From the IMG/VR virus record IMGVR_UViG_2734482770_000005, positions 1-24,191 of that record: a DNA stretch of 24,191 nucleotides; one strand, given 5' to 3'. The translations under genes and the position numbers were made by a program. Positions 3,939 through 24,191 of this stretch are shown here, in pieces; within the stretch, counting starts at the first letter, position 1; each line of letters starts with the position of its first letter. The stretch comes from a virus (Duplodnaviria; Heunggongvirae; Uroviricota; Caudoviricetes). The notes under the pieces were generated by a model. That model was not told the DNA's origin. It saw only the letters and a program-made list of their open reading frames with translations, and did no database searches.

Positions 3939-3947
3939 GGAGAATAA

Positions 3948-6428: not shown

Positions 6429-6432
6429 TCTT

Positions 6433-6816: not shown

Positions 6817-6830
6817 CAAGGAAAATAATA

Positions 6831-7862
6831 ATGAATGATTTATCAACATATTTTGGCGTTAATACTGCGGTAGTAACTCCATTTGCTTATGAGAATGCAC
6901 TTAATACCCTGATTACTAATCTCGATCTGTTCGATGTGCAATATCATACAGAAAACAGCATTCTTCTTACCGACCTGATTGATCAGTTTGTGCAGGTAGC
7001 TGGGGAAACCTCGCCTTACGCTCAAAGCGACTGGAACGCCTCTAAACGTCAGGAATGGTCAAACAAACTTTTCCAGATGAAACACGTCGGCAGTATTAAC
7101 GCTGTTACTTCTCGTGACCTGGAACAATACAGCCGCCAATATCCAAACCGTTCTGATGCTATGCTGGTAGCGGTTAATGATTTCTCTGAGGCTCATTACC
7201 GTTCACACGCAAACCGTGTTGAAGTGGATCTGATTACCGCGCTGCTGGGCCTGAAAGTTGAATCTGAATATGCCGGACAAGGTGATCTCGACTTCCTCGA
7301 CGGTCAGGCTAAAACCACGGTACCCGCTATCGACTTTGCATCGACTACTGTTAACCCGTTCCTTGCTATTCGTAAAGCGGTGCGCTTACAGAGTGAAAAG
7401 CTGGGGTCTGGTCTTGCTGCAAAGCGAACTGGTGTAATTATCTTTGCTGCTGGCACTGCTGCTGATGGTTTGTCATCTAACCCGCTGATCAGTGACATGG
7501 TGAAATATGCAGGCGATGCGAGTGCTACGGCCCTGTTTACCCGTATGGTTGATTCTAACCCAGCCTATGACTCTTTCCAGATTGGTGGGATCACTGTTAT
7601 TGATGTGTCAATGTTTCCTGAGATTGTTGCTCACATCGGAGAGAACGGTTTCGCAATTGTTCCGGTAATGGATAAAGCGGCACAGTGTTACCAGCTTCAT
7701 AGCGGCGTTGGTGTGCGTCATGCTGAGTTAGGTCAAGATGCCGTGTTGCATCACCAATATCTAATCAAGGATGAATTCCAATTCCCATCTGTGGTTACTG
7801 AGACATCTTATCTGCCAGTAAACAACATTCCGCAAGCTATCATCTTCGGATCTGCTGCGTAA
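6831..7862 (+). CDS. hypothetical protein (343 aa), possible virion or structural component
   Basis: Ribosome-binding site aaggaaaa; long uninterrupted ORF with a different codon and GC profile from the P4 part. No catalytic motif recognised. Confidence 0.6.
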   Translation: MNDLSTYFGVNTAVVTPFAYENALNTLITNLDLFDVQYHTENSILLTDLIDQFVQVAGETSPYAQSDWNASKRQEWSNKLFQMKHVGSINAVTSRDLEQYSRQYPNRSDAMLVAVNDFSEAHYRSHANRVEVDLITALLGLKVESEYAGQGDLDFLDGQAKTTVPAIDFASTTVNPFLAIRKAVRLQSEKLGSGLAAKRTGVIIFAAGTAADGLSSNPLISDMVKYAGDASATALFTRMVDSNPAYDSFQIGGITVIDVSMFPEIVAHIGENGFAIVPVMDKAAQCYQLHSGVGVRHAELGQDAVLHHQYLIKDEFQFPSVVTETSYLPVNNIPQAIIFGSAA

Positions 7863-8013
7863 TAAAGCGTTAATAGACGATTCCCCATCGGGGCAATAAG
7901 GGTAAAGGGATTAACTAACCTGTAGGCGCAAATACAGTAACGAATCTCTTTGCCCTTTTTGTTTTTCTACTGTCTACAAACCCAAATAAAAATATATATG
8001 TGAGAGAAAACCA

Positions 8014-8211
8014 ATGAATACAGAAAACCCACAATCCTTTATTCTTAAGGCTGTAAAAGAACTGGCAGCTATTAGCGAGGAATCAGTTATAAACACATCG
8101 GCGCTTTGCCGCCTTTTAGAAATTGATGCAAATAATGTGCGCCAGCGTGTCTTTCAGACTGGGTGCAGCACTTTCGAAGCAATTCAATACTATTGCTCTA
8201 AAAAACAATAA
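8014..8211 (+). CDS. hypothetical small protein (65 aa)
   Basis: ORF in track in the gap between two larger + strand genes; weak ribosome-binding site. Confidence 0.3.
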   Translation: MNTENPQSFILKAVKELAAISEESVINTSALCRLLEIDANNVRQRVFQTGCSTFEAIQYYCSKKQ

Positions 8212-8245
8212 TAAACAACAATCATAATACAGGGAAACAATTAGC

Positions 8246-10087: not shown

Positions 10088-10134
10088 TCATCACTGTGGG
10101 GCTGTTTAGCCCCCTTAAATAAGGATTACAAATT

Positions 10135-10812
10135 ATGGCAATGGGTCCGTTAACCATTGGTCGCCCGACTGAGGCGAAAATCAACAGCACAAGCAACGAT
10201 AGCAACGGTAGAACAACCAAAGGGGGTAACGGCTTTGCGATCATTACCTCTAATCTCGGCAGTGGTGCAAATGCTGCTTACAATGACTACCAGGCATTAT
10301 CATTTGATAGCGTGGAATCGACGAAAGTTAGCAGAAATGCGGACGTTACAAGCTATGCCGTCGAATCAGGATCAGAAGTTAGTGATCATGTTCAAATACG
10401 GAATAACAAGTTCACATTACAAGGGCGTATCTCTGAAACCGTATTGAAGCTCAATCCTGATATGATTAAGAATGCTGGAATTAACGGCAATCGACGTATG
10501 CTTATGCTTGAATACCTAAATCAGTTGATGGACAGTCGCCAACCTTTCCTACTTGTCACTGAGTTAAAAAATTATGACAACGTTGTGTTAGTTGGCATGT
10601 CTTACGAAGAAGAAGCAAGCGAAAGCCTATTGTTTACTCTTGATTTTGAGCAAATCCGTCTTGTCTCTAAAGCAACTACAAGCGCAATTGCGGTAAAAAC
10701 AGCACCAAATAAATCTGTAGGAGGCCAGGTTAAAATGCAGGTAAATACAACAGAACAGAAAAATCAAAAAAGCCCAGGGCAAGACGTTGTAACGCCAGTA
10801 TTTAAACAATAG
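10135..10812 (+). CDS. hypothetical protein (225 aa)
   Basis: aagga ribosome-binding site; follows the 613 aa gene after a short hairpin-containing gap. Confidence 0.55.
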   Translation: MAMGPLTIGRPTEAKINSTSNDSNGRTTKGGNGFAIITSNLGSGANAAYNDYQALSFDSVESTKVSRNADVTSYAVESGSEVSDHVQIRNNKFTLQGRISETVLKLNPDMIKNAGINGNRRMLMLEYLNQLMDSRQPFLLVTELKNYDNVVLVGMSYEEEASESLLFTLDFEQIRLVSKATTSAIAVKTAPNKSVGGQVKMQVNTTEQKNQKSPGQDVVTPVFKQ

Positions 10813-10853
10813 CCTTAAACGCCTATGAAACGCTCTGTAACGAGATAATCATA

Positions 10854-10885
10854 AAAGAGGCATCAGTCTATATTGAAGCCTCTTT
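10854..10885. terminator. hairpin between convergent genes, candidate intrinsic terminator (best fit for the - strand integrase transcript)
   Basis: Perfect 8-bp stem aaagaggc / gcctcttt around a 16-nt loop; on the - strand the stem is followed by a U-rich run (uuuuaugauuau). Confidence 0.4.
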
Positions 10886-10892
10886 ATTACGT

Positions 10893-12257
10893 CTATAGCG
10901 TTGTTTTACGCCTTAAATTTGATTTTTTATTGATTGATAAGCCTTTCTCTATTTCAGGGTAGCGTAAAAGCTCAATATATTTTTTAAGCTCTATTGGAGA
11001 AGCTGCATTTTTGCTATATGTGCGGAATGTTTCTGTATTGCCGCGTGTATGGCCCAGGAGAAGGGCGATCCTGTCTTCTGGAATTTGATTTCGATCAAGA
11101 AGCTGTGCTACTCCGTGTCTCAGAGAATGAAACACTTTCCTTTCTGTTCCCTTTTCCCCTAAAGCCTTTCGTTTAGCTCTTGTAAATCGTTGTGTATGCC
11201 ACGTAGAGCGTTTACCGTCAGCACGTTCTGTAATGCTGGCGTGATAGAACAAAAAGCCATTGTGAGGCTTTTCACGCAGCGACAACACCAACGGAGTGAT
11301 AAGGTTATGCACAGGCACAACACGTGCCGCAGCTTTCGTCTTTCCCTGTGTGATTTCAAAACACAGCACACCTTCGATCTCTTTCACATCGTCTATTGTG
11401 AGACTTGCTATCTCATTGATCCGCATACCTGTATATAAACCGATAAGACACAAAGCCGTCATTTCTTTGTTTTCTGCTGAATTACCGGAAAATACTTGCA
11501 ACACCTGCAATAGCTCTTTGTTAGAAAATGCCTCGTAGCTCTCTCTACTTTGTGCCACATCAAGCCTATGCCCTCGCCAGGGGGAGAGCGCCCTTTCTGG
11601 CGCATCGTGGTAACGTGATGAAGCTAATTCCCATAGCTGGGCCATTGGACTGATATAATTTGCAATTGATTGTTGTGAAAGAGTTTTTTGCATGTGTTCA
11701 ATCCAGCCTGTAACAGTGGTGCGGCTTACATCTTGCAATGCAATATCAGGCTTTTTACGGTAGGAGAGAAACATCTCTACCGCTTTTCTTGCCTTAGCTA
11801 AAGTGGCTGGCTTCTTCTTCGTGCTGTTAATTGTCAGGTAGATTTCAAGAATTTTAAGCAATGACGGACACGAAGACGCTGTATCTTGCACTCTGGTAGC
11901 TGTTTTGGCGTATTTAGCCTTACTGCGTAACAGTTCCAGCGTGTTTTCTATTGTGCTGTTTACAGGGGCAACACTCTCCCGTAAGCAATGGTATTCATCT
12001 GCAATCTGATCACGCTTTCTACGTGCAACACGAAGATTACTTGTGTGTAGACTTCTGACAAACGTCCTTTTTCCTTCAAAAAAGGGCTGCATATACACAG
12101 GCAGCGTGATCCTTAAATAGTAGTTACCGTAAGAATCACAGATTAAGTATTGGTTAGGCTTGTATCTCATAAAATCTCCGGCTAAAGTGTCGGAGCGTTT
12201 GTAATGTGAAAATTGATTGTGACGCATAGAAAATGATGATTTTTCTATAAGATTCAA
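10893..12257 (-). CDS. tyrosine recombinase / phage-type integrase (454 aa)
   Basis: C-terminal catalytic region carries integrase signatures: GMRINEIASLTIDDV, HSLRHGVAQLL (H-x-x-R box) and LLGHTRGNTETFRTYSKN (tyrosine nucleophile region). Confidence 0.8.
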   Translation of the reverse strand: MNLIEKSSFSMRHNQFSHYKRSDTLAGDFMRYKPNQYLICDSYGNYYLRITLPVYMQPFFEGKRTFVRSLHTSNLRVARRKRDQIADEYHCLRESVAPVNSTIENTLELLRSKAKYAKTATRVQDTASSCPSLLKILEIYLTINSTKKKPATLAKARKAVEMFLSYRKKPDIALQDVSRTTVTGWIEHMQKTLSQQSIANYISPMAQLWELASSRYHDAPERALSPWRGHRLDVAQSRESYEAFSNKELLQVLQVFSGNSAENKEMTALCLIGLYTGMRINEIASLTIDDVKEIEGVLCFEITQGKTKAAARVVPVHNLITPLVLSLREKPHNGFLFYHASITERADGKRSTWHTQRFTRAKRKALGEKGTERKVFHSLRHGVAQLLDRNQIPEDRIALLLGHTRGNTETFRTYSKNAASPIELKKYIELLRYPEIEKGLSINKKSNLRRKTTL

Positions 12258-12314
12258 TCAATTAGTAATGGTCGTAGGTGATGGCATTAACACGAGATTA
12301 ATCGAGTGTTTTAC

Positions 12315-12332
12315 TCCTATTATCGGCACCAT
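12315..12332. repeat. candidate attL core of the P4-like element (direct repeat of 23639-23655)
   Basis: tcctattatcggcaccat here matches tcctattatcgcaccat at 23639-23655 with one 1-nt indel; both copies sit at the expected outer edges (int side and crr side). Confidence 0.4.
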
Positions 12333-12495
12333 CTCCACTTCTTCAAACATCCGTATTTATCCATAACCGCACTGTTTTATAAAAGATTTTTTGTTTTTAC
12401 TGTTCGTATTAGTCCATAACTTTCCAGTAGAATCCAGTACTAAATGTGTATAGGATTATGTATATGTTCCTGTTCGATTTTGGAATTCTATACAC

Positions 12496-13680
12496 ATGCC
12501 CCTAAATGATATGCAGATTCGCCGTGCTAAACCTGAAGCTAAAGCCTATACACTTGGGGATGGGCAAGGGTTGTCTTTACTTGTAGAGCCAAATGGAAGT
12601 AAAAGCTGGCGATTTCGTTATCGCTATGCCGGTAAACCCAAAATGATCTCGCTTGGTGTTTACCCAACGATCACTCTTGCTGATGCTCGTTCCCGTCGTG
12701 ATGAAGCTCGAAAACTTGTGGCAGAAGGAAAGAACCCTAGTGAGGTTCGAAAAGAGCAAAAGCTGGCTCTGCAAACAGAGTCAGAGAACGCCTTCGAAAA
12801 GATAGCCAGAGAGTGGCATCAACAGAAGTCTACCAAATGGTCGGCGGGATATGCATCAGACATCATGGAAGCGTTTAAGAACGACATTTTTCCTTATGTG
12901 GGAACAAGGCCAGTGGGAGAGATTAAACCGCTAGAACTGCTTAATGTGCTGCGTAAAATCGAAAAGCGCGGTGCATTAGAAAAAATGCGCAAAGTTCGGC
13001 AGCGATGCTCAGAAGTTTTCCGCTATGCCATTGCTACTGGAAGGGCTGAGTTTAACCCTGCTGCGGATCTTTCAAGCGCCCTCAATGTACACCAATCAAA
13101 TCATTTCCCGTTCTTAAAGGCTAATGAGATACCTGATTTTCTTCGCGCCTTAAACGGATATACCGGAAGTCGGCTTGTCCTGATTGCCACGAAATTGCTC
13201 ATGATTACAGGTGTTAGAACCATCGAATTACGTGCGGCATTATGGTCAGAATTTGATTTAGATAACGCTATTTGGGAAATTCCTGCTGAAAGGATGAAAA
13301 TGCGCAGATCACACCTTGTGCCTTTGTCGACTCAAGCGTTAGATTTGCTAAATGAACTCAAGATGATGACAGGGAAGTATAGTTATGTTTTTCCGGGGCG
13401 GAACGATCCGAACAAGCCTATGAGTGAGGCGAGTATTAACCAAGTTATCAAGCGTATTGGTTATGGTGGAAAACTTACTGGTCATGGATTTCGACATTCC
13501 TTATCTACTATCCTCCACGAAAAAGGATATGATTCGGCTTGGATAGAAATACAGCTTGCTCATATAGATAAGAATAATATTAGAGGTACGTATAATCATG
13601 CTCAATATATTGATAAACGCCGTGATATGATGCAGTGGTATTCAGATTATATTTTTATTAAGGAGAATGTGAATGAGTAA
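12496..13680 (+). CDS. int: P4-type tyrosine integrase (394 aa)
   Basis: N-terminal arm-binding region typical of P4/CP4-57 integrases (MQIRRAKPEAKAYTLGDGQGLSLLVEPNGSKSWRFRYRYAGK); C-terminal catalytic motifs HGFRHSLSTIL and LAHIDKNNIRGTYNHAQYIDKRRDMMQWY. Confidence 0.9.
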   Translation: MPLNDMQIRRAKPEAKAYTLGDGQGLSLLVEPNGSKSWRFRYRYAGKPKMISLGVYPTITLADARSRRDEARKLVAEGKNPSEVRKEQKLALQTESENAFEKIAREWHQQKSTKWSAGYASDIMEAFKNDIFPYVGTRPVGEIKPLELLNVLRKIEKRGALEKMRKVRQRCSEVFRYAIATGRAEFNPAADLSSALNVHQSNHFPFLKANEIPDFLRALNGYTGSRLVLIATKLLMITGVRTIELRAALWSEFDLDNAIWEIPAERMKMRRSHLVPLSTQALDLLNELKMMTGKYSYVFPGRNDPNKPMSEASINQVIKRIGYGGKLTGHGFRHSLSTILHEKGYDSAWIEIQLAHIDKNNIRGTYNHAQYIDKRRDMMQWYSDYIFIKENVNE

Positions 13681-15301
13681 CGAGTTTGATAGTAGTAAAC
13701 TAGAAAATTGCTTTGAGCTTGCATTGGAAAATATTATAAAGCACGGCGATACAGATATTTTCCCTTACCCATTTGAAAGTCGGTTATTTGAAGATGATAA
13801 GGAGAAAGTAAAAACTGCATTAATGCAAACATTTAATGACTTTGAAAATAAAAGGATCGAGATTCCACCAAACATAATTAATAGCTTTTCAAGTATTGGT
13901 TATTATGGTTACAGGTGGGCGACCCAAATTGATCCATTCTGGAATGCTTTTTTTCTTGGGTTAGTTTTAAAAATCGCTGATGATATTGAAAGGAATAGAT
14001 CTACTAAAACGCAGGTTTATTCATATCGCTTTAAACCAAACCTTGCTGATGGTTCTCTTTTTGATAAAGAGATCTCTTGGAGAAAATATCAAGAAGACAG
14101 TATCTCTGAATGTTCTAACGATGAAATAAAGTATGTACTTACATGCGATATAGCAGATTTCTATCCGCGTATTTATCACCACCGTTTAGAAAATGCGTTA
14201 GATAGAGTCGACCCCAATAAAGATTACTCTGGGAAAATCAAGAAATTACTACAGACATTTAGTGAAACAAAATCATATGGAGTACCAGTTGGATGTCCTG
14301 CCTCTAGAATATTAGCAGAACTAGCTCTAGATTCTATTGATAAATTATTGTCTATGAATAGAATCAACTATAAGCGTTATGTCGACGACTTTGTTATTTT
14401 TTGTAACTCTAGAGAGGATGCTCATAAGATTTTAACTTTGCTTAGTAAAAAACTGATGGAAAATGAAGGGCTAACTTTACAGAAACAAAAAACCAATATT
14501 GTTACTAAAGAAGAGTTCCTTTCAGTAACTAAAGCTAAGTTGCATGGTAATGATGAAGATGAAGAATCTCCTATGAAGGCTAAATTTATGAGTCTTCCTA
14601 TAAGATTCGATCCTTACTCAGCAAATGCGATAGAGGAATATGAAGAGATAAAGGAATCTTTAAAAGATTTTGACTTGTTAGCTATGCTGAGTAGTGAGTT
14701 ACAAAAATCAAAAATTAACCAATCTTTTAGCAAGCATTTGATAAAGGCATTCTCAGCAACATCAGATGAAATAATAAGTAGTGCTTTCAAAGTAATGTTT
14801 AATAACTTGCATGAGTTATATCCAATATTTACAACTATAATTCAAGTAGCTAACTCCAACTGGCAAAAATTAAGCACAGAAACCAAAGATATTATTCTTG
14901 ATAAAATAACTGCACTAATTAAACAAGATTCATATATTTTGAGTACTGAGCTCAACTTAGCCTATGTAGCCCGAATGCTCTCAAAAGAAAATTCAGAAAA
15001 ATCCACCCTAATCCTTAGTGAAATATACAATAACAATCCAGAAAGCATCTTAGTCAAGAACATAGTTACACAGTCAATGGCAAAAATTAATTCTTACGCA
15101 TGGCTTTCTGATATCAAAAAAAATTTCTCTGCAATGCATCCGTTGCAGAGAAGACTATTGATCGTTTCCAGTTACATCTTAGGTGATGAAGGACGGCACT
15201 GGAGAGAGCATAATAAGAAAACATTCAACTTTGTAGAGGTGATTTACAGGGATTGGGCAAGTAAAAGGCATACCGCAAGAAATCTTGAGGATGCGCTATG
15301 A
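13673..15301 (+). CDS. reverse transcriptase (542 aa) with helical C-terminal extension; non-retron, non-intron defence-type RT suspected
   Basis: RT motif A CDIADFYPRIYHH, motif B SYGVPVGCPASRILAELALDSID, motif C with catalytic YVDD (YKRYVDDFVIF). Start overlaps the int stop by 8 nt with aagga ribosome-binding site. GC is visibly lower than in neighbouring P4 genes. Confidence 0.85.
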   Translation: MSNEFDSSKLENCFELALENIIKHGDTDIFPYPFESRLFEDDKEKVKTALMQTFNDFENKRIEIPPNIINSFSSIGYYGYRWATQIDPFWNAFFLGLVLKIADDIERNRSTKTQVYSYRFKPNLADGSLFDKEISWRKYQEDSISECSNDEIKYVLTCDIADFYPRIYHHRLENALDRVDPNKDYSGKIKKLLQTFSETKSYGVPVGCPASRILAELALDSIDKLLSMNRINYKRYVDDFVIFCNSREDAHKILTLLSKKLMENEGLTLQKQKTNIVTKEEFLSVTKAKLHGNDEDEESPMKAKFMSLPIRFDPYSANAIEEYEEIKESLKDFDLLAMLSSELQKSKINQSFSKHLIKAFSATSDEIISSAFKVMFNNLHELYPIFTTIIQVANSNWQKLSTETKDIILDKITALIKQDSYILSTELNLAYVARMLSKENSEKSTLILSEIYNNNPESILVKNIVTQSMAKINSYAWLSDIKKNFSAMHPLQRRLLIVSSYILGDEGRHWREHNKKTFNFVEVIYRDWASKRHTARNLEDAL

Positions 15302-16038
15302 TATCTGAATTAACGTTTTCTCGAAAATTCACTTCATTTTGGAATCAATTGCTTCCAAATGCTAATAATTTCATACGCATCATTAACGGCAGTCTCATCG
15401 AGGACGTTTATCCTCCTCTAGATGACTGCGCTAATAGGTCAAATAACGTCTTTGTTAATGAGTGCGCATTTAATTTATATAGGGCAATACAGAATGATTC
15501 GTTAGACAGAAATATTCTTTCAGCACATGATATCTTCCATAATGCTGATTTTCAGGTTGTTTTTGAAAAAACAAAAGAATATCTACAGCGGTTCGCTTAC
15601 GGTTCTAACTTCAAGCTACCCTTAAGCATGGTTGAGTACAATGCCATAAGGGAAATAGCAAGAAACATTTTGTCTCGATATGGAATGGAAAACCAAATTG
15701 AAGTGTCTCCACAATTCGATGGATGCGGAGTAATAAATAATTCATATGGCGATATTTATTATTCAAATGTTCTTGTGGAAATAAAATCAGGAGATAGGAA
15801 GTTTAGTGTTTACGATCTTAGACAGGTGCTAATATATTTCACTTTAAACTTTTACTCAAAAAACAAAAGAAACATCAAGAGATTTGAGCTTTTCAATCCT
15901 CGGATGGGTATCACTTATAGTGATACCATTGTCAACCTTTGCAAAGAGTTGGCGTTTATTCAACCTGAAGAATTGTACTTTGAGATAATGAATTCTATTA
16001 CAGAAGAAAATTTCATAGTAACTGAAATGCAACGCTAG
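15298..16038 (+). CDS. RT-associated accessory protein (246 aa), putative effector; function unknown
   Basis: ATGA start/stop overlap with the RT gene (translational coupling). Soluble, no obvious transmembrane segment. Weak motifs: R-x5-H (DRNILSAHD) and D-x11-E-x-K (GDIYYSNVLVEIK). Confidence 0.6.
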   Translation: MISELTFSRKFTSFWNQLLPNANNFIRIINGSLIEDVYPPLDDCANRSNNVFVNECAFNLYRAIQNDSLDRNILSAHDIFHNADFQVVFEKTKEYLQRFAYGSNFKLPLSMVEYNAIREIARNILSRYGMENQIEVSPQFDGCGVINNSYGDIYYSNVLVEIKSGDRKFSVYDLRQVLIYFTLNFYSKNKRNIKRFELFNPRMGITYSDTIVNLCKELAFIQPEELYFEIMNSITEENFIVTEMQR

Positions 16039-16047
16039 ATATCATGC

Positions 16048-16075
16048 AGACCGCTACAATCCATTGTAGTGGTCT
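16048..16075 (+). terminator. stem-loop just after the accessory gene stop, possible terminator or RNA structure
   Basis: agaccgctacaat cc attgtagtggtct gives a 13-bp stem with one G-U pair, 10 nt after the TAG stop, followed by atttct. Confidence 0.35.
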
Positions 16076-16157
16076 ATTTCTAAACGTTCCTTCTGACGAA
16101 TAAAGCCAAAATACCAAATAGAATTAAAGAAAATTATAATATCAGCCTTAGCGCGCA

Positions 16158-16176
16158 ATGCTCCCCCCGCCACGCC
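16158..16176. other. cos: candidate cos site (P2/P4-type 19-nt cohesive end sequence)
   Basis: Minus-strand reading of 16158-16176 is GGCGTGGCGGGGGGAGCAT, which matches the P2/P4 cohesive end as I recall it (GGCGAGGCGGGGAAAGCAC) at 15 of 19 positions. It sits between the cargo and psu, where cos lies in circular P4. Confidence 0.45.
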
Positions 16177-16278
16177 CGCCCGCTTTGCGGGGCGGTTTTA
16201 ATGCAGTTGCACTGACACGCTCAGACCGCGCCGGGAATGGCGCGGTCTGCAGAAAATGAGGCAGGGAAACGCATGCAA

Positions 16279-16310
16279 AGCCATGCACCTTATCGATGCA
16301 TGGCTTTTTT
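16279..16310 (+). terminator. Rho-independent terminator (+ strand orientation) before the psu 3' end
   Basis: Perfect 9-bp stem agccatgca / tgcatggct with 9-nt loop, followed by a run of five T (16306-16310). Confidence 0.55.
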
Positions 16311-16340
16311 CAGTAAAAACGGGCGGATTTTCGGGGAATT

Positions 16341-16913
16341 TTACACAGACTGACGTGATGCCAGTTGCGCACTTTTACGCGAAAAAATCATGTTCTGCGC
16401 AGGGGTGAATTTTTCACGGCTGTCATCCACCGAAGCCGCGTCAGGCCTGAATCCGATGGTCGTTAAAATGTCGCTATCCTGTGCGGAATAATTAATTTTT
16501 TCCCCCTTCGCAAGCCAGGACAGAAGGGCTTCACGCAGGGCATCTGTGGCACGCTGTATGGCACAGTTTCGGGCAATGGCCGTCAGCTCACTGTAGCCCA
16601 TCAGCTCCGGTGCCAGTGCGGCCGCCAGTACTGTGCCGTGCTGCTGCATAAAATCATTCAGCCGGTCGCGGATGCTGATGTGCTGAACGGCTTCATGCGA
16701 ACGAATATAACGACCGGCGGCCTGATTCACCTGCCATTTTCTGACTTCGATAATATTGCGTAATTCGTCCAGGCGGCTGACGTTTCTGCCTTCTCCTGAC
16801 AGAAGCCGCAGATATTCCTGTTCGGCCGCTGCCAGCTCATTTTTGCGTTGCAGCCATGCTGCTTTGTTATTCTGACAGGTGTCAAAGGCCTGCTGTAAGG
16901 CTGTGCTTTCCAT
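16341..16913 (-). CDS. psu: P4 Psu (polarity suppression / capsid decoration protein), 190 aa
   Basis: 190 aa, the P4 Psu length; the sequence MESTALQQAFDTCQNNKAAWLQRKNELAAAEQEY... matches P4 Psu as I recall it; position immediately 5' of delta and sid on the same strand. Confidence 0.8.
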   Translation of the reverse strand: MESTALQQAFDTCQNNKAAWLQRKNELAAAEQEYLRLLSGEGRNVSRLDELRNIIEVRKWQVNQAAGRYIRSHEAVQHISIRDRLNDFMQQHGTVLAAALAPELMGYSELTAIARNCAIQRATDALREALLSWLAKGEKINYSAQDSDILTTIGFRPDAASVDDSREKFTPAQNMIFSRKSAQLASRQSV

Positions 16914-16986
16914 CGTTATCTCTTTCTCATCATGCTGAAGAATAAAAATACGGTGTGCGGCGACGGCCGGTGTTAACCGGCAGCCC

Positions 16987-17487
16987 TCATTCCAGACGCA
17001 GCGAATATGATTGTGTTTTTAAGCGTACTGGCGGCAGTTCCTGTTTTTCATGCAGGCTTTCTGCCAGTTCGTCCGGCGTGACCGGGCGGACAATGAAGCG
17101 GTTGATGGTCTGAAGCGTTTTAAACACCAGACCACAGCCCGGATCCGTGCACACATAAAAACGCTCGGTGACTTCCTGAGACAGACGCCGCGATGTTCTT
17201 GACAGTGCAAGGCCTTTACATCTCCGACAACAATATCCGGTAACAAGCATTCTTTTCGGGCGTTTCATACTGCCGGAGGCTGACGTCAGTGAATCGCGGT
17301 ATCTCTGTTTGCCTGAAATGTATTCCATTCCTGAATCTTTACAGTCAGAGAAAAAGCTTTCACTCGCTTCAAATGTCGCAGAGCAATAAATATTCCGGCA
17401 CTGTGCAATCATTATCTTGGTGCCATCGTCCATGAAATGTGCGCGACGGGTGTGAGCAACATGTCCACACGACGGGCAGTAAATCAT
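16987..17487 (-). CDS. delta: P4 Delta late-gene activator (Ogr/Delta zinc-finger family), 166 aa
   Basis: Two Cys-rich Ogr-like modules (CPSCGHVAH...CRNIYC and CCRRCKG...CTDPGC); 166 aa as in P4 Delta; overlaps the sid stop by 4 nt. Confidence 0.85.
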   Translation of the reverse strand: MIYCPSCGHVAHTRRAHFMDDGTKIMIAQCRNIYCSATFEASESFFSDCKDSGMEYISGKQRYRDSLTSASGSMKRPKRMLVTGYCCRRCKGLALSRTSRRLSQEVTERFYVCTDPGCGLVFKTLQTINRFIVRPVTPDELAESLHEKQELPPVRLKTQSYSLRLE

Positions 17488-18218
17488 GACAGCAGTCCTC
17501 TGGCCTTAAGCTCTGCTCCCTGCTGGTCTATTTTGTCCTGCCACACCTTGCGCTGTGCCGGTGTGCCTGCCACCTCATAATCCATGTGCGGGAGTGTTGC
17601 CGCTGACAGTCCGGTCAGCCGGAGAACCGGCTCGCCGGTGAGGCTGATTTGCATCTGTTTTATTTTCTGTTCCAGCGATGATTTCACCTGCTGCATGACA
17701 GCTTTATCGGGTGCGACGTAGCCCTGATGGCCGGTGGTGTTGGCGAGCGGATTTTCCTGTACCAGGATGCTCAGATGCATTGCCCGGACAAGCGCCTCAC
17801 AGGTTTCATTCAGGGCGTGTTCCAGCTCATTCTCTGCATACAGACTCAGAAGGTGATGATGTGCCTTCCGGTAGGCGGTGGCCGTGCTGTCACACGCCCC
17901 TTTCAGGCGTTCACGTTCAAAATTCAGCACCACGGCCAGATTGTCATATTCCTGTACCAGCTCCCGGCGTGCCACGCGCTCAATGTGGCGCTGTTTCAGC
18001 TCGTCGCTCAGGACACCACCGGCTGCACGAAAGGCCGTGCGCCAGTCGTCAGCGTCGTTTCCGTCGGCCTGCGCCAGCGCATTTTTTTCCTGCTCTGCCC
18101 GTTCAATGGCCGTGACGGTCTCATCCATCAGGCGGGCGTTCTCAAGATGGGCGGCTCTGGCCTTTTCCAGTTGTGCCAGCGCGGGTTGCAGATATTCAGG
18201 GATGGTGTTGTCAGACAT
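17484..18218 (-). CDS. sid: P4 Sid (capsid size determination external scaffold), 244 aa from MSDNTIPEY
   Basis: The track ORF 17484-18284 extends upstream of the likely start; the ATG at 18218 is preceded by aggagccggaaa and gives 244 aa (the P4 Sid length as I recall it). The protein is largely helical and coiled-coil-like. Confidence 0.8.
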   Translation of the reverse strand: MSDNTIPEYLQPALAQLEKARAAHLENARLMDETVTAIERAEQEKNALAQADGNDADDWRTAFRAAGGVLSDELKQRHIERVARRELVQEYDNLAVVLNFERERLKGACDSTATAYRKAHHHLLSLYAENELEHALNETCEALVRAMHLSILVQENPLANTTGHQGYVAPDKAVMQQVKSSLEQKIKQMQISLTGEPVLRLTGLSAATLPHMDYEVAGTPAQRKVWQDKIDQQGAELKARGLLS

Positions 18219-18290
18219 TTTCCGGCTCCTCGTCACTTCAGGTTGAGAAAATTGTGACGTACACCGGACAACAACACGACGCATTGCAGA

Positions 18291-18308
18291 TGTGCCAGCC
18301 CTGACACA
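18291..18308 (-). promoter_or_regulatory. candidate Delta/Ogr-responsive late promoter element (Psid) with dyad symmetry
   Basis: TGTGCCAG CC CTGACACA is an imperfect dyad of the TGT-N-ACA type about 75-90 bp upstream of the sid start, where P2/P4 late promoters carry their activator-binding dyad. Confidence 0.35.
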
Positions 18309-18387
18309 GGAGACTCATCCTCAGACCGGCAAGCCAGGAAAAGGTCGCAGGAAAAAACGGCTTACTGTTTGTTTTTTTATATTTTAC

Positions 18388-18491
18388 TGTTCACCTCTGT
18401 TCACCATAAGAAAAAAGATAAGTAATACAGTAAGTTAAAGGGTGAACAATCGCAGTAATGACTGTTCACCGTCTGTTCACCACTGTTCACC
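18388..18491. repeat. cluster of TGTTCACC octamer iterons (5 direct, 1 inverted), candidate alpha-binding replication element (ori-like)
   Basis: tgttcacc at 18388, 18398, 18463, 18474 and 18484; ggtgaaca (inverted) at 18441. The same octamer recurs in the crr-like repeats at 23219-23525. Confidence 0.6.
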
Positions 18492-18769
18492 CGTTGATGG
18501 GCTTTTTATGCTGTTTATTACTGTTTATTTTTATTAATTCACTGAAATAAATAAGAAAAAACAATTTGCATTTCACTATAAAAAATTCCAGGTCCTTCAG
18601 AACCCTTTGAGACCCTTCCAGTCCAGATGGATAAAAAACACACAGCCATTGTAAGGCTGCCGGAACAAATCCCCCCTGTTGCGTCTGCCAAAAATATTCA
18701 CAAAATAAAGCGCTACCCGAAGCCGGACGGACTTATCCGGTGCTGTATGGACATTAACGAGGTAGCCCG

Positions 18770-19036
18770 ATGCAAGCTGTTTTTTCTTCCCCGTCTCCTG
18801 CCCCTGTGACGCCACTGATGCCGCTGCCGGACATCACGCAGGAGCGTTTTTTACGTCTGCCGGAAGTGATGCACCTGTGCGGCCTGTCACGCTCGACCAT
18901 CTATGAACTCATCCGTAAGGGGGAATTTCCGCCGCAGGTGAGCCTTGGCGGTAAAAATGTGGCCTGGCTGCACTCTGAAGTCACTGCATGGATGGCCGGG
19001 CGCATTGCCGGACGCAAACGGGGGTACGACGCATGA
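18770..19036 (+). CDS. AlpA/Vis-family small transcriptional regulator (88 aa; alternative start at 18815, MPLPDITQ...)
   Basis: Typical AlpA-family sequence: [47 protein letters not shown]. Confidence 0.75.
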
Positions 19037-19130
19037 TGATGCCCGCTCTGCAAAAAGTCCCTTTTTCTGGCTTGCCTTTTTCCGGCATTTGCGGATATAG
19101 TTTTTCCGCTGCCGCAAAATCGGCAGCCGG

Positions 19131-19422
19131 GCGTGAGAACCCGGGCAATCTAACGGCGACATATGACGCGCCATGCGTCTTTTTTTGTGTCGCAATCAAC
19201 GCCACAGAGCGCCAGATTATGGTGTGGTGTGTGGTCAGTCGTGCAGATGGCACTCCGTGCATCCTGCCCGCGTCCGCTCATTATGCCGCAGAGTCAATGG
19301 TAGCTCAGGCGGGGCAGCCTCCGGGCTGGCCGGTATCCGTTAGAGCCGGTATTCTCACCCCCGTCTGGGCTATCGCCATCGAGCGTGAGAACTCCGGCGA
19401 TAGCGTAACCTGCTATCTAACG
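19131..19422 (+). ncRNA. putative P4-type immunity-RNA region (seqA / seqB / seqC-like arrangement)
   Basis: Direct repeats gcgtgagaacccgggcaatctaacgg (19131-19156) and gcgtgagaactccggcga...ctatctaacgg (19383-19422) flank ccgttagagccgg (19337-19349), which is complementary to the ccggc...tctaacgg part of both repeats. No well-supported protein ORF covers the interval. Confidence 0.3.
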
Positions 19423-19435
19423 GAGGCTGCCATCA

Positions 19436-19632
19436 TGGCTACAACCCTTACCCCCTCACACCCTGAATTTGTCTTTGTGTTTGCCGCTGTCCGTCGCGCA
19501 GACCGCCATCCCCGTATCTGTATGCTTCGCACCGTCGCCGGTGATGAACGCAGCGCCCGCCGTTCCCTTGTCCGTGACTATGTGCTCTCCCTTGCTGCCC
19601 GTCTGCCGGTTGTGGAGGTGTCCCGTGCGTAA
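19436..19632 (+). CDS. hypothetical small protein (65 aa) in the P4 left-operon region
   Basis: ATG at 19436 preceded by ggagg; in frame with track ORF 18988-19632, whose upstream part looks like a GC-rich spurious extension. Confidence 0.3.
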
Positions 19633-19912
19633 TAAAAAAGCCCCTCAGACCGTCTCAGCGCGTCATGACGCCCGTGAACACCTCAGCATTGAGGCTTACC
19701 ATAAGCTCAACCGCGCCAGCGCCGTATCCCAGTTTGTTGGGGGTGATTTGATTCACCGTGAACTCTCCGGCCTGCATCAGCTCTACATTCCGCATATTTT
19801 CAGTTACCTGAATGAAGATATTGATTTTGTGCTGAATGAACTGAAAGCCAAAGGCCTGTGCCGCGATTTTCTCGCCCAGCAGAAAGACCGGGGAGACAGG
19901 ACGCATGTTTGA
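19626..19912 (+). CDS. hypothetical small protein (95 aa, GTG start), possibly epsilon-like
   Basis: ggaggtg ribosome-binding site 5 nt before GTG at 19626; in frame with the 3' part of track ORF 19469-19912. Confidence 0.4.
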
Positions 19913-20360
19913 TTTTCCCCAGCCCGGTGAGATTTACCGTTCTGCCGGTTTTCCCGATGTGGCCGTGGTCGGCATTCTGGAAGACGGTATTCCGTGGGAA
20001 ATGCCGTACCGCTGCCCGGAAATTGTCTGGAACCCGTACCGCCGTAAATTCAGTATCCTTGTGCGTATCCTCGCCGACGGGCGCACCACAGACATCCCGC
20101 TGGGGCGTTTTCTGCGGGAATTTACCTGTGACCGTCCTGACCTGTTCAAACGCAGCCCCGTAAACCGGCATGCGGTACTGAAAGAAATGGCCGGAGACCC
20201 GGAATTACAGAAATGGCGGGAGAAATATCTGGATATTTACCCGCAGGACCCTGTTCCGGTCAGCCGGGCGGCACCGGTGGCGCGGGAATGGCGGGAAATT
20301 CCCCGCACGGAGCCTGACCCGGAAATCACCCCGGATAACAGTTACCGCAATTATCTGTAA
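19905..20360 (+). CDS. hypothetical P4-family protein (151 aa, same size as P4 orf151)
   Basis: Coherent ORF with start overlapping the previous stop; lies between the regulator region and alpha as in P4. Confidence 0.55.
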   Translation: MFDFPQPGEIYRSAGFPDVAVVGILEDGIPWEMPYRCPEIVWNPYRRKFSILVRILADGRTTDIPLGRFLREFTCDRPDLFKRSPVNRHAVLKEMAGDPELQKWREKYLDIYPQDPVPVSRAAPVAREWREIPRTEPDPEITPDNSYRNYL

Positions 20361-20495
20361 TTAAAAAACGACACCCGAAAAATTAAATGTGCGTATTCGC
20401 GCAGGGATACGCACGTCTTCAGGAGACGCAGATATGCCTTATCAGTTAATGCAACCGGCACGGAATGCAGTCATCTGTCACAGGGAGGAAAGCAA

Positions 20496-20816
20496 ATGAA
20501 AACACCCTTACCGCCCGTCTTACGCGCTGCCCTTTACCGTCGCGCTGTCGCCTGTGCCTGGCTGACCGTGTGCGAACGTCAGCACCGCTATCCGCATCTC
20601 ACCCTTGAGTCACTGGAGGCGGCCATCGCCGCTGAGCTGGAGGGCTTTTATCTGCGCCAGCACGGTGAGGAAAAAGGGCGTCAGATAGCCTGTGCCCTGC
20701 TGGAAGATTTAATGGAATCCGGCCCCCTGAAGGCCGCGCCGTCGCTGTCCTTTCTCGGGCTGGTTGTGATGGATGAACTCTGTGCCCGTCACATAAAAGC
20801 GCCGGTACTGCACTGA
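20496..20816 (+). CDS. hypothetical P4-family protein (106 aa) immediately upstream of alpha
   Basis: Ribosome-binding site gggagg 7 nt before ATG; ends 15 nt before the alpha start. Confidence 0.55.
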
Positions 20817-20830
20817 AGGAGAACAACACC

Positions 20831-23164
20831 ATGAAAATGAACGTAACCGCCACCGTCAGCCATGCGCTCGGCCACTGGCCGCGTATTCTCCCGGCGCTGG
20901 GGATTCCGGTGCTGAAAAACCGTCATCAGCCCTGTCCGGTCTGTGGCGGGAGTGACCGCTTCCGTTTTGATGACAGGGAGGGGCGCGGCACCTGGTACTG
21001 CAATCAGTGTGGTGCCGGTGACGGCCTGAAACTGGTTGAAAAGGTGTTTGGTGTTTCCCCGTCCGATGCGGCCGCAAAGGTGGCTGCCGTGACCGGCAGC
21101 CTGCCACAGGCTGACCCGGCAGTGACGGCCGCCGCCGGTGCTGAAACAGACGCTGCCCGGAAGAACGCCGCCGCACTGGCACAAACCCTGATGGCAAAAA
21201 CCCGTCCCGGAACCGGTAACGCCTACCTGACCCGCAAGGGCTTTCCCGGCCGGGAATGCCGGATGCTGACCGGCACACACAGAGCCGGTGGCGTGAGCTG
21301 GCGTGCCGGTGACCTTGTGGTGCCACTGTATGACGACAGCGGCGAACTGGTTAACCTTCAGTTAATCAGTGCTGACGGCCGTAAGCGCACCCTGAAAGGC
21401 GGACAGGTCAGGGGCACCTGTCACACCCTTGAAGGACAGAATCAGGCCGGAAAACGTCTGTGGATAGCGGAGGGATACGCGACCGCACTTACCGTGCATC
21501 ACCTGACCGGTGAAACGGTGATGGTGGCGCTTTCTTCCGTGAACCTCCTTTCTCTGGCCAGCCTTGCCCGGCAGAAGCATCCGGCCTGTCAGATTGTCCT
21601 TGCCGCAGACCGTGACCTCAGCGGTGACGGCCAGAAAAAAGCCGCCGCAGCCGCAGATGCGTGTGAGGGCGTTGTTGCCCTGCCGCCGGTCTTCGGTGAC
21701 TGGAATGATGCCTTCACGCAGTACGGCGGGGAGGCCACCCGTAAGGCCATTTACGATGCCATCCGGCCACCGGCTGAAAGCCCGTTCGACACCATGAGCG
21801 AAGCAGAGTTTTCCGCCATGAGTACCAGCGAAAAGGCCATGCGTATCTATGAGCATTACGGCGAGGCGCTCGCGGTCGATGCCAACGGCCAGCTTCTGTC
21901 CCGTTATGAAAATGGTGTCTGGAAGGTGCTGCCGCCACAGGACTTTGCCCGGGATGTGGCCGGGCTGTTTCAGCGTCTGCGCGCGCCGTTCTCCTCCGGG
22001 AAGGTGGCCTCCGTGGTGGACACCCTGAAGCTGATTATTCCGCAGCAGGAAGCCCCCTCCCGCCGCCTGATTGGCTTTCGTAACGGCGTGCTCGACACGC
22101 AGAACGGTACGTTCCACCCACACAGTCCGTCACACTGGATGCGCACCCTGTGCGATGTGGATTTCACCCCGCCGGTGGACGGTGAAACGCTGGAAACCCA
22201 CGCCCCCGCGTTCTGGCGCTGGCTTGACCGTGCCGCCGGTGGCCGTGCGGAAAAACGCGACGTGATTCTGGCCGCACTGTTTATGGTGCTGGCAAACCGC
22301 TACGACTGGCAGCTCTTTCTGGAGGTGACCGGTCCCGGCGGCAGCGGCAAAAGTATCATGGCCGAAATAGCCACCCTGCTGGCCGGGGAGGATAACGCCA
22401 CGTCGGCCACCATTGAGACGCTGGAATCCCCGCGTGAACGTGCCGCGTTAACTGGCTTCTCACTGATACGCCTGCCGGACCAGGAAAAATGGAGCGGCGA
22501 CGGTGCCGGACTCAAGGCCATCACCGGCGGCGATGCGGTGTCCGTGGACCCGAAATACCGGGATGCGTACTCCACGCATATCCCGGCGGTGATTCTGGCC
22601 GTGAACAATAACCCGATGCGCTTCACCGACCGCAGCGGCGGCGTGTCACGCCGGCGGGTGATTATTCACTTCCCGGAACAGATAGCCCCGCAGGAGCGCG
22701 ACCCGCAGCTTAAGGACAAAATCACCCGCGAGCTGGCGGTCATCGTGCGTCACCTGATGCAGAAGTTCAGCGACCCGATGCTCGCCCGGTCACTGCTTCA
22801 GTCCCAGCAGAACTCAGACGAGGCGCTGAACATCAAACGGGATGCCGACCCGACGTTTGATTTTATCGGCTATCTGGAAACCCTGCCGCAGACCAGCGGC
22901 ATGTATATGGGGAACGCCAGTATCATCCCGCGTAATTACCGTAAATACCTCTATCACGCCTATCTGGCCTACATGGAGGCAAACGGCTACCGGAACGTAC
23001 TCAGTCTGAAAATGTTCGGGCTGGGGCTACCGGTGATGCTGAAGGAATACGGACTGAATTACGAGAAGCGCCATACCAAACAGGGGATACAGACCAACCT
23101 GACGCTGAAAGAGGAAAGCTACGGCGACTGGCTGCCAAAATGTGACGACCCTGCAACAACCTGA
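20831..23164 (+). CDS. alpha: P4 alpha-type primase-helicase replication protein (777 aa)
   Basis: N-terminal zinc-binding CPVCGG...YCNQCG; central primase region; Walker A P-loop TGPGGSGKS; 777 aa as in P4 alpha; ggaga ribosome-binding site upstream. Confidence 0.9.
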   Translation: MKMNVTATVSHALGHWPRILPALGIPVLKNRHQPCPVCGGSDRFRFDDREGRGTWYCNQCGAGDGLKLVEKVFGVSPSDAAAKVAAVTGSLPQADPAVTAAAGAETDAARKNAAALAQTLMAKTRPGTGNAYLTRKGFPGRECRMLTGTHRAGGVSWRAGDLVVPLYDDSGELVNLQLISADGRKRTLKGGQVRGTCHTLEGQNQAGKRLWIAEGYATALTVHHLTGETVMVALSSVNLLSLASLARQKHPACQIVLAADRDLSGDGQKKAAAAADACEGVVALPPVFGDWNDAFTQYGGEATRKAIYDAIRPPAESPFDTMSEAEFSAMSTSEKAMRIYEHYGEALAVDANGQLLSRYENGVWKVLPPQDFARDVAGLFQRLRAPFSSGKVASVVDTLKLIIPQQEAPSRRLIGFRNGVLDTQNGTFHPHSPSHWMRTLCDVDFTPPVDGETLETHAPAFWRWLDRAAGGRAEKRDVILAALFMVLANRYDWQLFLEVTGPGGSGKSIMAEIATLLAGEDNATSATIETLESPRERAALTGFSLIRLPDQEKWSGDGAGLKAITGGDAVSVDPKYRDAYSTHIPAVILAVNNNPMRFTDRSGGVSRRRVIIHFPEQIAPQERDPQLKDKITRELAVIVRHLMQKFSDPMLARSLLQSQQNSDEALNIKRDADPTFDFIGYLETLPQTSGMYMGNASIIPRNYRKYLYHAYLAYMEANGYRNVLSLKMFGLGLPVMLKEYGLNYEKRHTKQGIQTNLTLKEESYGDWLPKCDDPATT

Positions 23165-23180
23165 CCCTCATAACTCATCT

Positions 23181-23204
23181 GACCGGCATCTGCCGGTCTT
23201 TTTT
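23181..23204 (+). terminator. Rho-independent terminator of the alpha operon
   Basis: gaccggca tc tgccggtc inverted repeat followed by tttttt (23199-23204), 17 nt after the alpha stop. Confidence 0.65.
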
Positions 23205-23218
23205 CATCCCTGAATCCC

Positions 23219-23525
23219 CCGAAGGTGAACAATCCACTGTTCACCCTTCACCGTATATTCACCCGTTATCACACTGAAATTAAAAGAGAAAAACGAAAGG
23301 TGAACAGTGTGAACAATCAAATCAAAAAAAACTTTTTTCTTCCTGAGTGATTTCAGTGCGGAGGATTAATCACCGGTATGAGTCACACCGGCAGAATGCC
23401 GGAGGTGAAGAATCGAATGTTCACCCTTCACCCATTATTCACCACCTATCACACTGAAAGAAAAGGAGAAAATCAAAGGGTGAACAGTGTGAACAGTTCT
23501 TTCGAAAAAAAACTTTTTTCTTATT
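23219..23525. repeat. crr: crr-like replication element: two about 125 bp direct repeats, each with TGTTCACC/GGTGAACA octamers
   Basis: Repeat 1 about 23219-23343 and repeat 2 about 23399-23524 (offset about 180 bp) share aggtgaa..atgttcacccttcacc..attcacc..tatcacactgaaa..ggtgaacagtgtgaaca..aaaaaaacttttttctt. Two about 120 bp direct repeats with iterons is the described P4 crr organisation. Confidence 0.65.
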
Positions 23526-23638
23526 TTTAATTGTGCGAAAAACAAGCGATGCGCGCAGTGTGTATAGATATGTGTATAGTTATATTTTTTGAATATAATA
23601 ATCTATTATAAATCAATGTCTTAACTTTTAATATTCAT

Positions 23639-23655
23639 TCCTATTATCGCACCAT
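23639..23655. repeat. candidate attR core of the P4-like element (direct repeat of 12315-12332)
   Basis: tcctattatcgcaccat; see the attL entry. Lies between crr and the chromosomal LysR gene. Confidence 0.4.
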
Positions 23656-23780: not shown

Positions 23781-24191
23781 TTAAGCCAATTGCTGCCGCC
23801 ATTCCTTGACGTGGTCAATCAGGGCGCGGAGCTTTGGTGCAATATTGCGACGCTGTGGGAAATACAGATAGAAGCCTGGAAATTGTGGAAGAAAGTCATC
23901 AAGCAGCGATACAAGCTTACCGCTTTCAATATATGGCCTGAAAGTTTCCTGAGTGGCAATTGTTATTCCTTCACCGACAAGAGCCAGCTGCAACATCAGA
24001 CGCAGATCATTAGTCGTAATCTGCGGTTCAATCGCAAGGTCGAAAGTTCTCCCGTTTTCTTCAAATGGCCAGCGATAAGGCGCAACCTCCGGGGACTGAC
24101 GCCAGCCGATACACTTATGGGTATTTCCCCCGGAGGCGAGAAAGCGCTCTCCACGCCCGGCCGCAAGGATCAGGACGACGGGGGCAGGCAT
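23781..24191 (-). CDS. LysR-family transcriptional regulator, C-terminal substrate-binding part (gene continues beyond the window end)
   Basis: Translation reads like a LysR effector-binding domain (LILAAGRGERFLA..., LRLMLQLALVGEGITIATQETFRPYIESGKLVSLLDDF). Higher GC and no mobile-element features, so probably host flank. Confidence 0.6.
   Translation of the reverse strand: MPAPVVLILAAGRGERFLASGGNTHKCIGWRQSPEVAPYRWPFEENGRTFDLAIEPQITTNDLRLMLQLALVGEGITIATQETFRPYIESGKLVSLLDDFLPQFPGFYLYFPQRRNIAPKLRALIDHVKEWRQQLA

Follow-up and report, generated by a model that had tools for sequence, protein, structure and literature searches.

A P4-like satellite prophage with a DRT8 cargo behind another island at the tRNA gene thrW

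Gene content of the element

Our analysis of the virus record IMGVR_UViG_2734482770_000005 showed that positions 12313-23654 of the window (the whole stretch of 24,191 nt that was analysed, to which all coordinates refer) hold a P4-like satellite prophage. The element is very probably intact, lies at the 3' end of the tRNA-Thr gene thrW as the second unit of a tandem array, and carries a DRT8 system as cargo. It is already known: an ordinary catalogued P4-like satellite, complete in the present copy and annotated piecemeal in RefSeq. Measured from att to att it spans 11,342 bp, against 11,624 bp for P4, a size that fits small P4-type capsids (about 10-12 kb). Its open reading frames (ORFs) encode, in map order, 394, 542, 246, 190, 166, 266, 88, 151, 106 and 777 amino acids (aa), and the features of the locus are collected in Table 1.

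The relationship with P4 is close over most of this length. Searches of the deposited phages by megablast returned P4 (NC_001609 / X51522) at 97.7% identity over 7.3 kb, and direct blastn aligned window 16177-23518 with the P4 sequence from the right cohesive end up to the final base of crr; DNA identity over this alignment is 97.6%, with 165 mismatches and two indel events. When the P4 proteins were searched by tblastn, all matches were full length and ungapped except for Int, gop, beta and cII, the last three of which had no match in the window. Nine P4 reading frames are present at full length and 95.7-100% identity, among them cI (95.7%), and no core gene is disrupted. The core gene set of P4-like satellites, as listed in PMC13586616, comprises Int, Psu, Delta, Sid, AlpA/Vis, ash (cI region) and Alpha; all of these (7/7) are full length here, six of them at 95.7-99.1% identity to P4 and Int at 39%.

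The replication and immunity sequences also have P4 counterparts. The window has 11 copies of the iteron TGTTCACC, where 0.71 would be expected, and 0/100 shuffles reached this number. Of the exact copies, ori holds six and crr five; tolerating one mismatch brings these counts to 6 and 10, and the number, order, orientation and sequence variants of the iterons at both sites are identical to those of P4. Matches at the Rfam gathering thresholds were obtained for the c4-a1b1 targets (49.3 bits), isrK (72.1 bits) and C4, the P4 immunity RNA (74.5 bits). We also observed a 9-bp insertion relative to P4, CTCATAACT, at 23167-23175, after the stop codon of alpha and ahead of its terminator hairpin.

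A previous sequence-only reading had described a near-complete P4-family element of about 11.3 kb. The size and the family are right, but the element is complete, rather than near-complete, for P4 core functions. All the items that this reading had ordered along a P4-like map, from int to crr, were found where it had put them or within a few bases. The lengths that it gave as those of P4 for Psu (190), Delta (166), Sid (244) and alpha (777) belong to full-length matches, Sid being counted from the P4 start codon (the mechanical 266-aa ORF begins at an upstream ATG). Its AlpA/Vis-like gene and its ORFs of orf151 and orf106 size are 98.9%, 98.0% and 100% identical to P4, and the two clusters of the TGTTCACC octamer that it saw flanking alpha are ori and crr, in the P4 arrangement. 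It had proposed that low identity to P4 or disrupted genes would betray a decayed remnant. Alignment to NC_001609 gave 97.6% over 7.3 kb of DNA and 95.7-100% for proteins, and the search for broken core genes found none. Its view of the element as a prophage agrees with the Rfam matches to the P4 immunity RNA and isrK and with the presence of the same discrete unit, alone after thrW, in two strains.

The cargo, left unidentified in that reading, is DRT8. The reverse transcriptase (RT) matches the PADLOC Drt8 profile with E=4.9e-166 and 552 bits, covering positions 4-492 of the 493 in the profile. The RT gene begins inside the end of int, its start codon and the int stop giving an overlap of 8 nt, and the YVDD motif stands at residues 236-239. 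The product of the next gene matches RTasPDDEXK, the PADLOC profile of DRT-associated PD-(D/E)xK nucleases (E=5.5e-69), has a RecB/Cas4/MGME1-like fold, and carries residues D152, E161 and K163, none of which varies among 34 homologues, the most distant at 33% identity. The cargo thus has both hallmarks of DRT8, a UG7-group RT and an adjacent PD-(D/E)xK nuclease (cluster 17 of PMC9226505). Both proteins are identical to WP_000064054 and WP_000622599, the pair that Rousset et al. 2022 (PMC9122126) list as "system #2" in their Table S1B and mark as UG7. They counted it 294 times at the P4 hotspot in a set of more than 20,000 E. coli genomes, which ranks it second by frequency in their catalogue. 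Mestre et al. 2022 (PMC9226505) named UG7 'DRT type 8', described it as a two-gene system, reported that a UG7 system protects against T5 and needs both active sites, and already noted UG7 in P2/P4 variable regions. A 2026 review (PMC13213688) lists the mechanism of DRT8 as not established, and among solved structures none was closer to the cargo RT than the RT core of DRT4.

One might think of a retron or a group II intron instead of a DRT system, given that a P4-like phage with a retron in the hotspot exists (the retronphage phiR73, cited in PMC9122126). NCBIfam, which has no DRT8 model, returned sub-threshold matches to other RT families alone, such as group II RT (78 bits) and retron St85 RT (56 bits), both far below the cut-offs. 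Yet no other RT group in PADLOC exceeds 128 bits, against 552 for Drt8, the partner gene is the DRT8-specific nuclease, Rfam found neither retron msr/msd RNA nor intron RNA in the window, and the published catalogue (PMC9122126) places the exact same protein in UG7. The retron or intron reading is highly improbable and was rejected on the Drt8 score and the Rfam result.

The DRT8 genes occupy a variable segment with 33% G+C, against 56% for the P4 backbone. The limits of this segment come from a thrW P4-like element with another cargo (L129), in which homology covers 12313-13643 at 84% and resumes from 16153 at 98%. Backbone homology in about 1,200 other genomes begins at about 16150-16152, and in another strain a thrW P4-like element has an ORC/CDC6-type ATPase at the place of DRT8. 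The scan of 12200-16400 for promoter and terminator consensus sequences gave counts at the level of chance (13 vs 12.6 and 3 vs 2.5 expected), and we therefore make no promoter claim for DRT8. The operon may end at an inverted repeat with imperfect 13-bp arms (AGACCGCTACAAT / ATTGTAGTGGTCT) and a trailing ATTTCT, just past the nuclease gene (16046-16073); this candidate terminator was not called by the consensus scan.

Table 1. Features of the satellite and of the first island, in window coordinates
Feature	Position	Strand	Remarks
attL	12313-12331	+	19-nt copy of the thrW tRNA-Thr 3' end, ACTCCTATTATCGGCACCA; identical in L001, L123 and BL21-AI
int, tyrosine integrase, 394 aa, thrW-specific	12496-13680	+	Pfam domains; = WP_001130497.1
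DRT8 reverse transcriptase (UG7), 542 aa	13673-15301	+	PADLOC, Pfam RVT_1, YVDD; = WP_000064054
DRT8 effector, PD-(D/E)xK nuclease, 246 aa	15298-16038	+	PADLOC; = WP_000622599
Variable hotspot segment	13644-16152		limits from L129 comparison; 33% G+C
cos 19-mer	16158-16176	-	GGCGTGGCGGGGGGAGCAT on minus strand
psu (capsid decoration / Rho antagonist), 190 aa	16341-16913	-	98.9% to P4 Psu
delta (helper late gene activator), 166 aa	16987-17487	-	97.6% to P4 Delta
sid (external scaffold setting small capsid size), 244 aa	17484-18218	-	98.8% to P4 Sid
ori, six type-1 iterons TGTTCACC	18388-18491		count, spacing and orientation as P4 ori
51-bp cassette upstream of PLL, class B	18577-18627	-	takes the place of P4's three P2 Cox boxes
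vis/orf88 (AlpA-family excisionase and regulator), 88 aa	18770-19036	+	98.9% to P4 ORF88
c4-a1b1 targets	19095-19147	+	Rfam
isrK	19108-19185	+	Rfam
CI RNA (Rfam C4)	19293-19380	+	immunity region spans 19095-19380
epsilon (helper derepression), 95 aa	19625-19912	+	98.9% to P4 Epsilon
orf151	19905-20360	+	98.0% to P4 ORF151; intact here
orf106 (DUF5375)	20496-20816	+	100% to P4 ORF106
alpha (primase-helicase, ori/crr-binding replication protein), 777 aa	20831-23164	+	99.1% to P4 Alpha over 776/777 residues
crr, two 120-bp direct repeats 60 bp apart, five type-1 iterons each	23219-23518		P4 homology stops at 23518
Candidate integrase arm-type sites, tandem 12-mers GTATAGATATGT, GTATAGTTATAT	23562-23585	+	third copy at 13377-13388, inside int
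attR	23637-23654	+	18-nt imperfect thrW 3' copy, ATTCCTATTATCG-CACCA; one mismatch, one missing G
DNA invertase	719-1276	-	first island
HTH_36 / replication-initiator-like gene	3270-3938		first island
Lambda-gpE-family major capsid protein	6831-7862		first island; 45-49% identical to PF03864 proteins
Tape-measure-like protein	8246-10087		first island; phrog_16051, E=3e-34
Dit-like tail protein	10135-10812		first island
DUF6538 tyrosine integrase	10893-12257	-	first island

Integration at thrW, cos and mobility

The integrase has the Pfam domains Arm-DNA-bind_3, Phage_int_M and Phage_integrase, i.e., the three-domain architecture of P4 type. Its alignment with P4 Int extends over 409 columns, with R241, H330-x-x-R333, H356 and Y366 aligned. 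The sequence-only reading was correct in placing int at its position in the P4 map, but the integrase is not that of P4. Both limits that it gave to the element (12315 and 23655) fall on the two att repeats. A tRNA scan of the window found no gene, and just 18-19-nt fragments of thrW lie inside, because the gene itself is about 600 bp upstream of the window. In L123 and L125 the left thrW copy forms the terminus of an intact tRNA gene. This holds for strains 10035210-2, where the element is 100.0% identical, and 2013C-4974, with the element as sole insert directly behind thrW. BL21-AI has an empty site, in which proA-thrW is followed by the sequence found right of attR in the window, and in about 4,000 E. 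coli genomes the right-flank homology begins exactly at the attR core. The tandem 12-mers near attR are candidate arm-type sites of the integrase; at up to one mismatch the window has three matches only to this motif, and their layout parallels the annotated arm repeats of the P4 attP.

The flanks of the element have features of their own. At the junction of the two islands (12269-12312), GGTCGTAGGT, which equals the thrW T-arm, is followed by 33 unrelated bases and then by the 19-nt thrW core, so that the right arm of the first island holds an interrupted, additional tRNA homology. Window 23781-24191 (minus strand) has a truncated LysR-family gene, a yagP-like pseudogene without its N-terminus, which borders the thrW site. 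BL21-AI, whose site is empty, has this fragment behind thrW as well, and the truncation therefore predates both islands.

The cos site was compared with 120 cos sites of the P2/P4 family among the matches listed. The sequence-only reading had announced a recognisable cos, and there is indeed a P2-family 19-mer next to psu, matching P4 at 15/19 positions with an identical psu-side flank, but it is a variant and not the P4 sequence. The variant GGCGTGGCGGGGGGAGCAT is common to all five relatives examined (98.2-100% identity). Its one-step neighbour GGCGTGGCGGGGAGAGCAT (AG) was found, among the matches listed, at 17 loci at least, all of them P4-like satellites (17/17) and none a helper, which makes it the commonest cos form of the P4-like satellites sampled (17/32). 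The helper types in the same matches were the P2 type (55 loci) and the 186 type (30 loci). Satellites seem, from these sequences, to keep cos 19-mers of their own.

All known requirements for mobilisation, in cis and in trans, are present in the sequence, and we infer by analogy with P4 that the element would be mobilisable by a P2-like helper. Several observations weigh against an active satellite. The cos 19-mer has 4/19 mismatches to GGCGAGGCGGGGAAAGCAC, the sequence of P4, P2 and WPhi, and GGCGTGGCGGGGGGAGCAT is a rare variant with one occurrence in IMG/VR. The attR repeat differs from attL by one mismatch and a 1-nt deletion, and no helper phage lies within the window. Furthermore, in a reference set of 5,426 complete E. 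coli genomes, the int-DRT8-cos-psu segment was found in 105/5,426 and at least 80% of the 11.3-kb element in 41/5,426. What separates the two numbers are derivatives with internal deletions (in EC12, for instance, delta abuts orf106), and the lineage does decay in place.

One could thus regard the element as a fixed, immobile remnant, i.e., a domesticated defence island whose reading frames persist by recent acquisition or because DRT8 benefits the host. The imperfect attR and the rare cos would fit this explanation, and so would the frequent delta-to-orf106 deletions in relatives (EC12, L003), the frameshift of orf151 in the 100%-identical copy of strain 10035210-2, and the constancy of the locus, always the same among the E. 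coli genomes seen. We nevertheless consider it unlikely. The core genes and the cis sites are all intact in the present copy. The element occurs alone at thrW or behind a second island, and empty sites exist, which argues for independent insertion events. The cos variant is conserved across the 98.2-100% identical relatives and, since satellites often differ from their helpers in the 19-mer, as best seen in the satellite-specific GGCGTGGCGGGGAGAGCAT, it is weak evidence against function. Finally, a crossover inside GCACCAT would explain how attR differs from attL, the left portion of attR presumably coming from attP. We retain the reading of an intact and potentially mobilisable satellite.

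The cassette upstream of PLL

The sharpest divergence peak of the backbone, and its sole strongly diverged stretch, is found at 18540-18632, the rest being 98-99% identical. The P4 record annotates this stretch as 'ori type 2 repeats' (three 10-mers). Read on the other strand, these repeats (TTAAAGTCA, TTAAAGCCA, TTAAAGCAA) are three matches to the Cox-box consensus of P2, TTAAA(G/C)NC(A/C) (PMC3936717). P2 Cox binds the P4 boxes, activates PLL and wakes the P4 prophage, whereas WPhi Cox is reported neither to bind the P4 boxes nor to activate P4 (PMC3936717, PMC5009727). Within window 18505-18656 there are no P2-type boxes at up to one mismatch, against three in P4. The window has instead boxes of the form CTSRAAGG, with 10/11/9-bp spacing (minus strand ...GGACTGGAAGGGTCTCAAAGGGTTCTGAAGGACCTGGAA...).

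Between fixed anchors this cassette measures 51 bp and exists among P4-like loci as three discrete alleles of equal length, class A (that of P4), class B (that of the window) and class C (that of relative L124). All three classes were found inside the thrW/DRT8 lineage, whose members are more than 98% identical and share the same int, DRT8 and cos. This suggests that the cassette may be swapped by recombination, which would retarget the satellite to another waking helper. Vis is identical in the lineage members of classes A, B and C, and Delta in those of B and C; the factor that reads the cassette is therefore not expected to be encoded by the satellite.

We aligned each class locally with the 3.5-kb regulatory region of three helpers, P2, WPhi and 186 (bounded by ogr or B at one end and by cox or apl at the other, with int and the repressor in between), using 300 shuffles per comparison. 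Class A had a z-score of 4.6 with P2, 1.0 with WPhi and -0.1 with 186, and its match in P2 falls on the Pc promoter, a known Cox operator, which serves as a control. Class B had 0.2 with P2, 6.2 with WPhi (reached by 0/300 shuffles) and -0.7 with 186. In WPhi it matches a stretch flanked by the attP core and the P' arm sites, which is where the attP of P2 has its annotated Cox site. Class C had 0.0, 0.8 and 0.6, respectively, and thus no partner among the three. In the reference set of E. coli, 277/5,426 genomes have a class B cassette and 260/5,426 have a WPhi-type Pe-Pc/cox region.

From these alignments we lean slightly towards the view that class B is a WPhi-type Cox site, and it is tempting to hypothesize that the present copy is woken by WPhi-type helpers. 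With its four mismatches in cos, its imperfect attR and its lack of P2 Cox boxes, the element is in any case probably woken by a helper other than P2 itself. Two results limit the WPhi assignment. The 11-mer direct repeat of the WPhi Pe-Pc region (CTAGAARGGAC), an independent definition of the Cox box, had 5 matches against 7.75 expected and was not informative. A motif scan of IMG/VR returned 16 class B satellites, 8 WPhi-type phages and 2 unrelated coding matches, but is partly circular because its pattern had been designed on the very alignment in question. When the 66-nt cassette was compared by BLAST with the phage collection, the output was noise alone. As for co-residence, the IMG/VR contigs of class B satellites and of WPhi-type phages (16 and 8) had no genome ids in common; for the E. 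coli genomes, strain 504237 was among the best matches listed for both.

The cassette might also have nothing to do with helper sensing, and either drift neutrally or vary together with the replication origin or with the Vis protein of the satellite. The P4 record does label the three 10-mers as origin repeats, the test with the WPhi-derived 11-mer was not significant, and class C matches none of P2, WPhi and 186. Such explanations are still rather doubtful: the cassette is the sharpest divergence peak of a backbone otherwise 98-99% identical and comes as three discrete alleles of equal length, while Alpha and Vis are near-identical or identical across its classes. Furthermore, the P4 counterpart coincides with three consensus Cox boxes (consensus in PMC3936717), and the matches of A to P2 and of B to WPhi are reciprocal and specific. 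On balance we cautiously favour an exchangeable 51-bp helper-sensing cassette that would copy the Cox site of a given helper, class A mimicking the P2 operator, class B the Cox-site region of the WPhi attP and class C the site of some further helper. We found no description of an exchangeable helper-matching cassette in the literature searched, and this is the modestly new point of our study, the element as such being already known.

Besides the cassette, the comparison with the 98% identical relatives L124 and L125 revealed a second cluster of differences, at 19100-19499, in the CI RNA immunity region. This clustering suggests heteroimmune variants within one lineage.

Neighbouring island, proposed behaviour and known systems

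The satellite stands behind a first island of about 12.9 kb, which comprises window 1-12312 plus about 600 bp upstream and lies directly after thrW (L001 3395-16301). Along with the genes in Table 1 it has many small genes of unknown function. No portal, terminase or tail tube genes were recognised in it, it had no PADLOC matches, and we found no description of it in the literature searched (thrW satellite capsid, DUF6538, satellite tape measure). At least 80% of this island is present in 134/5,426 E. coli genomes, including O104:H4 2011C-3493, and its layout is preserved in variants that are about 86% identical. This unit could be a satellite or a defence island, in either case an uncharacterised one. 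Two adjacent stretches in it, 3132-3298 and 3365-3682, are near-identical to function-unknown genes within the hypothetical-gene regions of large virulent phages of the Stephanstirmvirinae, at 98% to PaulScherrer (Justusliebigvirus, bas60_0101) and VEcB and at 93.6% to Mt1B1_P17 (Phapecoctavirus), muut, inny and BI-EHEC, which suggests recent exchange between the island and these phages. Two other stretches, 1277-3145 and 5247-6188 (1.9 kb and 0.9 kb, about 35% G+C), have almost no ORF of at least 60 aa, and Rfam had no match in them at gathering score.

The near-identity to P4 allows us to propose, from the established biology of the latter, how the satellite would behave. The CI RNA would keep the prophage silent. 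In the presence of a P2-family helper, Epsilon would derepress the latter, and Delta would turn on the helper late genes together with the satellite's own promoters Psid and PLL. Alpha would replicate the satellite from ori with crr, Sid would force the capsid protein of the helper into small capsids for about 11 kb, and Psu would decorate and stabilise them. The helper terminase would then cut at the satellite cos and package its DNA. Int and Vis would recombine the 19-nt and 18-nt thrW repeats in excision and re-integration, with ...TATTCATTCCTATTATCGCACCATCTCC... as the predicted junction of the excised circle. If our reading of the cassette upstream of PLL holds, the waking signal acting through it would be Cox of WPhi type, and not that of P2. 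Finally, DRT8, set in the int-to-cos hotspot in place of the non-essential gop-beta-cII, would be an accessory defence against other phages, and by protecting the host it would protect the satellite too. Because of its RecB/Cas4/MGME1-like fold, the effector nuclease may act on DNA ends or single strands, possibly on the product of the RT or on phage DNA.

A P4-like satellite with DRT8 cargo adds, as such, nothing new. Nevertheless, this intact example would allow the study of DRT8 in its native mobile context, and it shows how two islands have accumulated in tandem at a single tRNA gene. If the proposed role of the cassette is true, satellites would match heteroimmune helpers through the exchange of a short site in cis rather than of a gene.

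Among known systems, P4 (NC_001609 / X51522) is the closest: the genes, their order, the ori/crr iterons and the CI RNA immunity region are the same, and the sizes are nearly equal (11.3 vs 11.6 kb). The two differ in the integrase (39% identical), the insertion site (thrW, not leuX) and the att arms, in the replacement of gop-beta-cII by DRT8, in 4 changes in the cos 19-mer, and in having a WPhi-like cassette where P4 has three P2 Cox boxes upstream of PLL. P4 sensu stricto has the P4 integrase with the leuX site and P2-type Cox boxes upstream of PLL, and the present element has neither. The circuit of P2 Cox and the P4 PLL shares with it the position of the cassette upstream of PLL and a box spacing of about 10 bp, but the boxes here resemble the attP sequence of WPhi. 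The retronphage phiR73 (cited in PMC9122126), like other P4-like cryptic prophages at tRNA genes, also has a P4 backbone with an RT cargo next to cos and an insertion at the 3' end of a tRNA gene; the cargo of phiR73 is the retron Ec73 and its tRNA gene is another one. The DRT8 of Mestre et al. (PMC9226505) has the same two-gene architecture, and both catalytic motifs are present here. Finally, the satellites with system #2 of Rousset et al. have the same cargo at the same place between int and cos, and our window is one such locus; neither the Cox-box cassette nor the cos variant is described in PMC9122126.

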